Of a DNA stretch of 39,461 bases, positions 13,709 through 14,084 are shown one piece after another. The DNA is taken from contig CAJOPR010000022.1 of NCBI GenBank assembly GCA_905236395.1, positions 1 through 39,461 of the forward strand. Reading direction: 5' to 3'. How positions within the stretch are numbered: position 1 is the stretch's first letter; every line of letters starts with the position of its first letter. The notes beneath the pieces were generated by a model. That model was given only the letters and a program-made list of their open reading frames with translations, was not told the DNA's origin and searched no databases. The translations under genes were made by a program, and so were the position numbers. The DNA is from an uncultured Bacilli bacterium (lineage in GTDB: Bacteria > Bacillota_I > Bacilli_A > RFN20 > CAG-826).

Positions 13709-13835
13709 ATTTTCTTTAAAAATATTAATCAAAGATTAAAAGAAATGACTTAATAATTTTTTGAGAAAAAAGTCGCTTCTCAAAGCCTATTTATATATAG
13801 GAGGGCAAGAAATTGCTCCCTGGAGGTAAACGCGC

Positions 13836-13946
13836 ATGCCGCATTTATTCTTCAGGCCATCCCATGTTGCCCCGAGAGGAGCAGCTGATGGAAACAATTT
13901 TGATGTTTCTATCATTAGTTGCGGTTATTATTTACCTTTTACGTAA
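13836..13946 (+). CDS. Putative 36-aa leader ORF overlapping the hydrophobic peptide gene in another frame
   Basis: GGAGGT 13822-27, 8 nt before ATG. Translates to MPHLFFRPSHVAPRGAADGNNFDVSIISCGYYLPFT. Confidence 0.4.
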   Translation: MPHLFFRPSHVAPRGAADGNNFDVSIISCGYYLPFT

Positions 13947-13950
13947 GTAG
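13888..13950 (+). CDS. 20-aa hydrophobic peptide METILMFLSLVAVIIYLLRK, putative type I (holin-like) membrane toxin
   Basis: RBS GAGGAG 13876-81. One TM helix with C-terminal RK. RBS and ATG both lie in predicted stems. Confidence 0.7.
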   Translation: METILMFLSLVAVIIYLLRK

Positions 13951-13955
13951 GAGAT

Positions 13956-13996
13956 AAATAAAAAGGGGATCCCTTGGACAAGGATCTCCAACCGCA
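13956..13996 (-). ncRNA. Candidate short antisense RNA (antitoxin)
   Basis: Lies downstream of a minus-strand promoter and consists mostly of hairpin 13965-13989 followed by TTTTTATTT. Boundaries uncertain. Confidence 0.35.
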
Positions 13997-14001
13997 TTTT
14001 A

Positions 14002-14030
14002 ATGATAGTCCATCAGGAGAGTGAAATCAA
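14002..14030 (-). promoter_or_regulatory. Candidate sigma-A promoter firing antisense to the peptide gene
   Basis: Minus strand TTGATT-17 nt-TATCAT. Confidence 0.5.
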
Positions 14031-14044
14031 GTGGTGTGGTCCTG

Positions 14045-14084
14045 AAAGTGAAGGTGATTTCCTTTTGGAATAGCCTTCATTTTT
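14045..14084 (+). terminator. Terminator-like hairpin closing the structured element
   Basis: AAAGTGAAGG...TTCC-TTTT-GGAA...CCTTCATTTTT. Confidence 0.65.

Follow-up and report, generated by a model that had tools for sequence, protein, structure and literature searches.

Does the long gap between a sugar ABC transporter operon and the glgBP genes of an uncultured Bacilli bacterium conceal a gene of its own? The window that we analysed (39,461 nt; contig CAJOPR010000022.1 of assembly GCA_905236395.1) contains, between the open reading frames (ORFs) 13275..13664 and 14128..14607, an intergenic gap at 13665-14127. An earlier note, made from the sequence alone, had put the length of this gap at about 460 bp and had seen in it a short ORF at 13888-13950 behind a GAGGAG ribosome-binding site, which it took for a type I toxin-antitoxin module. 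Both the ORF and the site (13876-13881, 6 nt 5' of the ATG at 13888) are indeed present, and the gap measures 463 nt. On architectural and comparative grounds, we consider it rather probable that the cassette in this gap, which is chromosomal and varies among strains, belongs to an undescribed family of type I toxin-antitoxin-like modules. The toxin-antitoxin reading is supported by a conserved ORF, a predicted mRNA with a strong fold and a convergent promoter-terminator unit that is found in all five copies of the cassette. Its elements are as follows (UTR, untranslated region; MFE, minimum free energy).

13888..13950, plus strand: candidate toxin ORF of 20 aa, METILMFLSLVAVIIYLLRK, from ATG 13888 to TAG 13950
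13799..14092, plus strand: predicted toxin mRNA of about 290 nt, from the fold, with presumed ends
13799..13818, plus strand: 5' AGGAGG motif and 5' hairpin (13803-13818), from MFE partners
13819..13856, plus strand: second 5' UTR hairpin, CCUGGAGG...CUUCAGG, from the fold
13866..13885, plus strand: hairpin with the ribosome-binding site GAGAGGAG (13874-13881), from the fold
13928..13961, plus strand: hairpin around the last codons and the stop codon, from the fold; inverted repeat I3
13990..14029, plus strand: 3' UTR arm pairing with the start codon and codons 1-13 (13886-13926), MFE partners A13888:T14027 to T13926:A13990
14044..14092, plus strand: 3' hairpin and T-run, likely terminator of the sense RNA, from the fold; the 41-nt hairpin is 14044-14084
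14002..14030, minus strand: promoter of the candidate antitoxin RNA, TTGATT-17-TATCAT, from a consensus scan
13953..13996, minus strand: predicted antisense RNA of about 41-44 nt (5' tail (A)UGCGGUUG, hairpin, U-run), with presumed start and end
13709..14085, no strand assigned: strain-variable 377-bp insertion holding an AT-rich lead-in and the structured RNA, i.e. the whole cassette, with ATTT at both junctions

The short open reading frame and its copies

Is the ORF more than a chance occurrence? The window belongs to genome G000 (0.98 Mb in 85 contigs, 79% complete); G007, G005 and G010 are congeners, and G369 represents another genus of the same family. Altogether, four full copies of the cassette (G000, G007a, G005 and G369) and one antisense-only copy (G007b) were found, all within one family of small-genome Bacilli. 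Conservation of the ORF at homologous loci, which the earlier note had proposed to check, was observed in all four full copies: each encodes a peptide of 20-21 aa with a hydrophobic core and a basic C-terminus. The homologous peptides are MESVLILLILAVLIYLLRGKR in G007a, MEALVAFMVFLVFLLLLRRI in G005 and MILVAIAAILVIAILVRVLK in G369. The ATG is preceded by a purine-rich stretch resembling a Shine-Dalgarno (SD) sequence, strong in G000 and G007a and weak in G005 and G369.

The two closest copies, G000 and G007a, share 18 alignable codons, five of them identical, six synonymous and seven with conservative changes (T/S, I/V, M/I, F/L, L/I, V/L and I/L). The 15 nucleotide differences are distributed 7/0/8 over codon positions 1/2/3, the chance of none of 15 falling at second positions being (2/3)^15 = 0.002, and the sole indel is one whole codon, in frame. 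Only 0.34% of 100,000 random-mutation trials equalled the observed openness, identity and hydropathy jointly. The alternative reading frames differ radically from copy to copy. In G369 the nucleotide sequence is no longer alignable, yet the design of a hydrophobic-plus-basic ORF of 20-21 aa is retained. The ORF is not a product of chance, because it recurs together with its RNA context in three other genomes, with substitutions of the coding type; this pattern of change indicates that the 20-aa ORF is conserved as a coding sequence. Metagenomic contigs of run X10 carry a T>C difference at 13899, which is synonymous (ATT to ATC).

A second, 36-aa ORF at 13836-13946 (plus strand), whose ATG lies 9 nt past a GGAGG (13822-13826), overlaps the entire 20-aa ORF in a different frame. 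The homologous ATG of G007a shares the reading frame of the peptide, and the 36-aa product is not conserved as a protein.

How were these copies found, and how far does the cassette extend? A BLAST search over 41 relatives returned one homologue, that in the congener G007 (G007a); a 24-nt AT-rich match in G035 lay within unrelated sequence and was set aside. Searching G007 with its own copy yielded G007b, which keeps only the 3' half of the cassette at 69% identity to G007a.

L048:1483-1650 (contig C15, about 20333-20467), minus strand: antisense-only copy G007b, with promoter, hairpin and T-run, TCCTGA motif and 3' hairpin

No hydrophobic small ORF was found within 330 nt of G007b, which would look like a decayed toxin whose antitoxin has been retained. 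The neighbours of this remnant are a 251-aa gene on one side and, on the other, a gene whose product has a helix-turn-helix-like N-terminus.

The remaining copies came from the antisense side. A pattern derived from the first three copies (TTGAWW, 17 nt, TANNAT, 2-8 nt, TGNNGTTRG) gave an additional match, in G005, among 12 genomes of the genus. Over 401 family genomes it matched 21 loci, all of which were inspected: five are of the cassette type (G000, G007a, G007b, G005 and G369), and the other 16 were rejected for want of a hairpin and T-run at the cassette distance or of a small hydrophobic ORF opposite. The reversed control of this first pattern gave about six matches in the family genomes. 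We then refined the pattern by fixing the gap at 5 nt and appending N{15,45}CCTTTTT. In an order-level sample of 401 genomes (G000, 264 others of its family and 136 from seven other families; G005 is not among them), the refined pattern returned cassette loci only, with no match outside the family and none for the reversed control. Its one match in viral contigs proved to be a terminator flanked by ordinary phage genes and lacking a small hydrophobic ORF, and distant-mode blastn of the cassette against plasmids and phages found no match.

Searches that started from the sense side were less productive. A DNA pattern for the ORF, allowing up to three mismatches, found only G000 and G007 among the 401 family genomes, besides two three-mismatch matches within coding sequence. 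The 5' UTR motif gave a single record across genome contigs, the G007 locus itself. Across metagenome contigs the ORF motif had no match, and a degenerate peptide-level pattern had seven, all unrelated on inspection. A hidden Markov model of the peptide, run on the 401 family genomes with E up to 5, reported 56 genomes, with strong scores in G000 and G007 only; ten other loci, the best-scoring ones and those with short open frames, were inspected and none was a cassette. This model missed the G005 and G369 peptides. A pattern built on the alignment of two peptides matched 121 loci in viral contigs and 19 in genome contigs, none of which passed the subsequent tblastn filter; this filter is too strict for a query of 20 aa and failed to recover even G007. 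In G000 itself, nhmmer and blastn-short found no second copy, so that the cassette is single-copy there; a weak match on contig C46 lay inside a peptidase gene.

The predicted messenger and the convergent antisense unit

What kind of RNA carries this ORF? The stretch 13799..14092 folds with an MFE of -113 kcal/mol, a z score of -7.6 against 200 dinucleotide shuffles. The G007a copy scores -5.6 (dinucleotide shuffles), and the G005 and G369 copies score -9.4 and -5.9, respectively (mononucleotide shuffles). Independent folds of G000 and G007a have in common a clamp between the 5' and 3' ends, two 5' hairpins, pairing of the SD sequence with an upstream C-run, pairing of the AUG with the 3' UTR, and the stop-codon hairpin. 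In the G005 fold, the clamp, the anti-SD pairing, the stop-codon hairpin and both 3' hairpins are kept, and the AUG is paired locally instead.

Several of these elements can be followed base by base. The clamp joins AGGA at 13799-13802 to UCCU at 14040-14043 and is kept in the three aligned copies (helix 1, with 100% of cells paired). Equivalents of the second 5' UTR hairpin are CUGGA/UUCAG in G007 and CUUGAAAG/CUUUCAGG in G005. At the ribosome-binding site, C13873 and C13872 pair with G13878 and G13879, and the counterpart in G005 is CUUCU with AGAAG; the probability of being unpaired is 0.0 at three of the eight SD bases in G000 and at most 0.01 at five of nine in G007. The pairing between start codon and 3' UTR is likewise present in G007 (A1476:T1625 onward) and appears as helices 4, 5 and 7 in the three-copy consensus. 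With its initiation region thus enclosed, the newly made mRNA is predicted to allow hardly any translation.

RNAalifold predicted 64 pairs from the three-way alignment. Paired cells amount to 88.4%, as compared with 73.7% in shuffles (none of 500 reached the observed value) and 45-52% when the partners were slid. In 26 of the 64 pairs both partners have changed; shuffles give 10.6 +/- 2.4 such pairs (again, none of 500 reached the observed number), and sliding gives 3-9. Among the 26 are five of the 11 pairs of the stop-codon hairpin (helix 6), which is kept in all three copies, and eight of the 14 pairs of the 3' hairpin (helix 8).

The earlier note had described the region as bounded by terminators. 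The upstream one stands: the consensus scan places a plus-strand terminator of the upstream operon at 13679-13708. The downstream one is seen only in the fold, as the hairpin 14044-14084, and was not flagged by the scan. A second terminator hairpin is visible in G000, G007a, G007b and G005 and is not evident in G369.

Beyond what the earlier note had reported, the opposite strand carries a promoter (14030..14002) and, downstream of it, a terminator at 13986..13968 with a T-run, both recognised by the scan; the terminator hairpin has a predicted stability of -11.9 kcal/mol. The homologous promoters read TTGAAA-17-TAGTAT with a TG in G007a, TTGATT-17-TAATAT in G007b and TTGATT-17-TATAAT in G005 and G369. 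The TTGA, the TAnnAT and the bases TG..GTT.G of the TGnnGTTRG motif that follows are invariant in all five copies, and the spacer is 17 nt. Each of the five has a hairpin and T-run 3' of the promoter, and the hairpin sequences differ. At this post-stop hairpin the T-run occurs on the minus strand only, in every copy, with none on the plus strand; the sense RNA therefore probably runs past it.

The predicted antisense RNA is fully complementary to the 3' UTR of the mRNA directly after the stop codon. Its length across copies, 40-52 nt, assumes a start 6-8 nt after the -10 box and comprises a tail of 6-9 nt on the hairpin. A segment in the middle of the ORF (TGCGGTT in G000, TTGGTGTT in G005) is identical to the 5' tail, since in the mRNA fold it is the partner of those 3' UTR bases to which the tail is complementary. 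Of the four carrier genomes searched, three (G000, G007 and G369) encode RNase III; it was not found in G005, a genome that is 76% complete.

How does the cassette compare with the general description of type I systems, and does it belong to a family already on record? As published, the toxin mRNA of such systems has 150-400 nt and encodes 20-60 aa; it carries a stem-loop at the 5' side and a terminator at the 3' side, its SD sequence is paired with an anti-SD, and its 5' and 3' parts interact over a long distance (PMC8594479). The predicted RNA of about 290 nt and the 20-aa ORF fall within these sizes, and all four structural features appear in the independent folds of three copies, as predicted structures. 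Rfam gave no match at the gathering score, either in this region or in the four other loci, a check that the earlier note had suggested. Below threshold there were weak and scattered matches, and the best scores were those of STnc230 (31.1 bits; gathering 50) and SR6_antitoxin (22.6 bits; gathering 55, E 0.2). The latter lies at 14039-14090 on the plus strand, not at the antisense unit, and we treated it as a chance match. The Pfam and NCBIfam libraries, which contain Fst models, assigned the peptide to no family with E up to 10; the sole match was to FixQ, below threshold (16.3 bits; cut-off 29). The view that no named family can be assigned is therefore upheld for Rfam, Pfam and NCBIfam alike, and none of the computational checks named in the earlier note went against its reading.

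Insertion, neighbourhood and competing explanations

Metagenomic contigs matching the locus came from DNA runs labelled animal or bovine gut, in 12 studies, and they reveal variation among strains. No RNA run was listed among the matching ones, and a run labelled metatranscriptomic (X19) gave no contig at the locus; neither result bears on expression. In a 365-nt contig of run X10, position 13708 is joined directly to 14086, so that 377 nt are skipped, and four letters (ATTT) fit both sides. In a 2946-nt contig of run X2, both flanks and the bases up to 13804 are kept, and 439 other letters replace 13805-14084. Further contigs of X10 and of X5 contain the cassette with few differences. In G005 and G010 the syntenic site is without a cassette and holds a terminator and a promoter only, within a spacer of roughly 60-110 nt (read from the sequence). 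We found no terminal inverted repeats at the ends of the insertion. The four full copies occupy four different contexts, across which no neighbour gene is conserved.

G000: past the transporter operon; a co-oriented gene follows
G007a: between a lipoprotein-like gene and a convergent ABC ATPase gene
G005: 5' of a uvrA-like gene; a co-oriented gene follows
G369: between two opposite-strand genes

The lead-in of the insertion (about 13717-13807) shares exact blocks of 20 nt and 16 nt, together with AGGAGGGC, with a region 5' of an unrelated 155-aa gene on contig C76 of the same genome (about 2786-2847, minus strand), where AGGAGGG is the ribosome-binding site of that gene. The X2 replacement allele diverges directly after the part shared with C76, at 13804. 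These sequence matches suggest that the 5' end of the cassette was assembled by recombination with another intergenic region.

Upstream of the gap lie the genes for a sugar ABC transporter (a binding protein, two permeases and a MalK-like ATPase) and then for a 129-aa protein without family; downstream are a gene for a 159-aa protein, also without family, and those for GlgB and GlgP. Neither flanking product (13275-13664, 129 aa; 14128-14607, 159 aa) has a Pfam family match. The 159-aa protein has an orthologue in only two of 11 congeners (61% and 41% identity), in both cases beside an orthologue of the 129-aa gene. The cassette region had been called richer in G+C than other intergenic DNA here, and it is: 13799-14084 has 42.7%, against 23.1% in the remainder of the gap (13665-13798), 24-33% in six of the window's seven other gaps of at least 40 nt and 35.7% in the seventh. 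The second large gap of the window, 26882-27491 (610 nt), is this last one. Two ORFs of less than 100 aa lie in it, one at 26899-27135 (78 aa) and the other at 27095-27340 (81 aa, GTG start), both coding for hydrophobic segments, and an Rfam scan of this gap with E up to 0.1 found no match. A tRNA gene stands at the end of the window (39385-39458, plus strand; Rfam tRNA, 61.4 bits).

Could the same observations be explained without a toxin? The product might be a small membrane protein that is harmless, such as one modulating a membrane complex, made from a structured mRNA that is tuned by a cis-antisense RNA. The evidence for coding and for structure fits such a protein equally well, the cassette is single-copy in G000, and the one Pfam match, sub-threshold as it is, is to a small membrane subunit. 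However, no gene neighbour is common to the four contexts, so that no partner complex is indicated, and the peptide drifts freely within the confines of a hydrophobic helix and a basic end, unlike a protein with a specific partner. The heavy sequestration of the SD sequence and AUG, the presence, absence or replacement of the cassette among strains and the antisense-only remnant fit, instead, a product that must stay off. We regard the harmless protein as unlikely. It is very unlikely that the functional product is RNA only, whether a structured non-coding RNA or an RNA pair, with an incidental ORF. The very strong folds and their covariation would suit this idea, and the last six codons lie in a conserved hairpin that could by itself conserve their sequence. 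It does not account for the lack of differences at second codon positions (0/15) or for the in-frame indel; nor does it explain why the length, the SD-like stretch and the hydrophobic-plus-basic design persist even in the unalignable G369 copy, whereas the alternative frames change radically. Nor does any Rfam family match.

Two further explanations concern the reading frame and the neighbours. In both G000 and G007a, no stop codon interrupts the frame over the 29 codons that precede the ATG, and an AGGAGG stands 8 nt (G000) or 5 nt (G007a) before an in-frame TTG; the real product might then be a tail-anchored protein with a basic N-terminal part, of 45 aa in G000 (from TTG 13813, behind the 5' AGGAGG) and 47 aa in G007a. 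In-frame stops are found, however, five (G005) and four (G369) codons upstream of the ATG, and the frame in which the homologous bases (TTCAGGCC) are read differs between G000 and G007a. These stops and the frame mismatch of the extension identify the 20-aa ORF as the conserved unit. No homologous protein was found in the collections, the representative library returning three long repetitive proteins only, and we consider the longer product highly improbable. As for the neighbours, the earlier note had offered a small regulator of the adjacent transporter as an alternative, and a leader peptide or attenuator acting on the transporter or on the 159-aa gene and glgBP is a related idea. A small ORF followed by hairpins and a terminator is attenuator-like, and a co-oriented gene follows the cassette in G000 and G005. 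But the gene that comes next runs the other way in two of the four copies (G007a and G369), and in G000 a separate promoter-like site (TTAACT-16-TAAAAT with a TG) stands in front of the downstream gene, past the cassette terminator. The orthologous loci in G005, in G010 and in one metagenomic strain (the X10 contig) are without the cassette, and the neighbours differ in all four copies, which stand in unrelated contexts. The transporter regulator is contradicted by this distribution, and to regulation of neighbours in general we give next to no credence.

The type I toxin-antitoxin reading is thus the one that we favour, and the following observations weigh against it. The comparative evidence comprises four full copies only, and the peptide has no sequence similarity to any known toxin family in Pfam or NCBIfam. 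A membrane span would usually be longer than its hydrophobic stretch, which has 15-16 residues, and the ribosome-binding sites of the G005 (AGAAG) and G369 (AAAGG) copies are weak. The consensus scan recognised no sense-strand promoter 5' of the cassette in any of the three loci for which upstream sequence is available, and no sense-strand 3' terminator is evident in G369. The structure used for counting covariation was derived from the same three-sequence alignment, which biases the count. On the antisense side, the predicted RNA of 40-52 nt is shorter than the 60-200 nt published for type I antitoxins (PMC8594479), and its overlap is far below the 100-140 bp of Bacillus subtilis systems (PMC6562991). 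Its pairing with the 5' UTR and ORF is no better than that of shuffled RNAs (a fraction of 0.26 of shuffles in G000 and 0.20 in G007a were at least as good). Finally, the -35 and -10 boxes share their bases with the 3' UTR arm that is paired to the ORF, and the mRNA fold could account for part of their conservation.

Proposed mechanism and relation to known systems

How might such a module work? The arrangement described above leads us to infer that both strands are transcribed, with the ends given, that the ORF is translated into a toxic peptide, and that the antisense RNA neutralises it by way of RNase III. A plus-strand mRNA of about 290 nt would encode the 20-residue hydrophobic peptide with its basic C-terminus, which may insert into the membrane and be harmful when made in quantity. 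The mRNA would be locked by pairing of the ribosome-binding site with its anti-SD, by pairing of the start codon and codons 1-13 with the 3' UTR, by the stop-codon hairpin and by the clamp between 5' AGGA and 3' UCCU. The near-consensus convergent promoter within the 3' UTR DNA would drive an antisense RNA of about 40-52 nt, ending directly after the stop codon. The perfect duplex of this RNA with the 3' UTR could then mark the mRNA for cleavage by RNase III and for decay, as in Gram-positive systems with 3' overlap.

One may speculate, although we find it doubtful, that the cassette is a minimal type I design in which a toxin of 20 residues is matched by an antitoxin that amounts to hardly more than a 6-9-nt tail on a terminator hairpin. 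Given the identity between this tail and the mid-ORF segment, the antitoxin would be a mimic of the ORF and compete with it for its 3' UTR partner; it would thereby remodel the clamp besides marking the mRNA for decay, and antisense-only remnants such as G007b would be anti-addiction genes.

Type I systems are missed by gene callers and are poorly traced by sequence similarity, so that each new family widens what can be found. The hosts here are uncultured Bacilli with small genomes (about 1-1.7 Mb) from the guts of ruminants and other animals. If functional, the module, whose peptide has 20 aa and whose antisense RNA has about 45 nt, would be among the smallest of its kind. It would then lend itself to use as a compact kill switch under RNA control and to studies of how a 3' UTR can clamp its own ORF. 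The antisense-side pattern is a specific probe (no control matches in 401 genomes) that can be used for a census of the family, and the polymorphism of presence, absence and replacement makes the locus a strain marker.

Where, then, does the cassette stand among described systems? A literature search, which included type I systems in Mollicutes, did not find the cassette family; T1TAdb entries and paper supplements lay outside that search. The toxins of the Fst and SprA1 families have about 30 residues and those of the Ibs family about 19, and it is with Ibs/Sib that the cassette shares a very short hydrophobic toxin. The resemblance ends there: the peptide has no family match, and Sib, of a Gram-negative family, spans the whole ORF (PMC8594479), unlike the antisense RNA predicted here. 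Hok/Sok and AapA/IsoA have, as is predicted here, a long-distance 5'-3' lock and SD/anti-SD pairing, but they are Gram-negative systems whose antisense RNAs lie in the 5' part of the mRNA or in the ORF (PMC8594479). The 36-aa upstream ORF of G000 (13836-13946) recalls the mok leader ORF of hok, although here it is not conserved in frame.

The predicted layout is that of Gram-positive families, whose antisense RNA lies on the 3' side and, in Fst/RNAII and SprA1/SprA1as, does not overlap the ORF (PMC8594479). In TxpA/RatA, BsrG/SR4, BsrE/SR5 and YonT/SR6 of B. subtilis, toxin mRNA and antitoxin overlap at the 3' end of the former, as predicted here; decay of the mRNA is promoted by the antitoxin, and the duplex is a substrate of RNase III (PMC6562991). 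Their duplexes extend over 100-140 bp (PMC6562991) and overlap the ORF (PMC8594479), whereas the overlap predicted here is about 40-52 nt and confined to the 3' UTR. Fst/RNAII (par) and SprA1/SprA1as have, as is predicted for the cassette, a small hydrophobic peptide and a convergent 3'-side antisense RNA that overlaps the mRNA but not the ORF (PMC8594479). A 5' stem-loop and SD sequestration are also common to them and the predicted mRNA of the cassette. They differ in that the RNAs of these families interact outside the overlap (PMC8594479), where pairing in the cassette is no better than in shuffles; the Fst family profile, moreover, is unmatched by the cassette peptide, and the antisense RNA is predicted at only 40-52 nt. 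Judged from its sequence, the cassette would follow type I logic in a Gram-positive layout, with the antisense RNA on the 3' side; both this RNA and the toxin would be unusually small, and the 3' UTR would be self-clamping.

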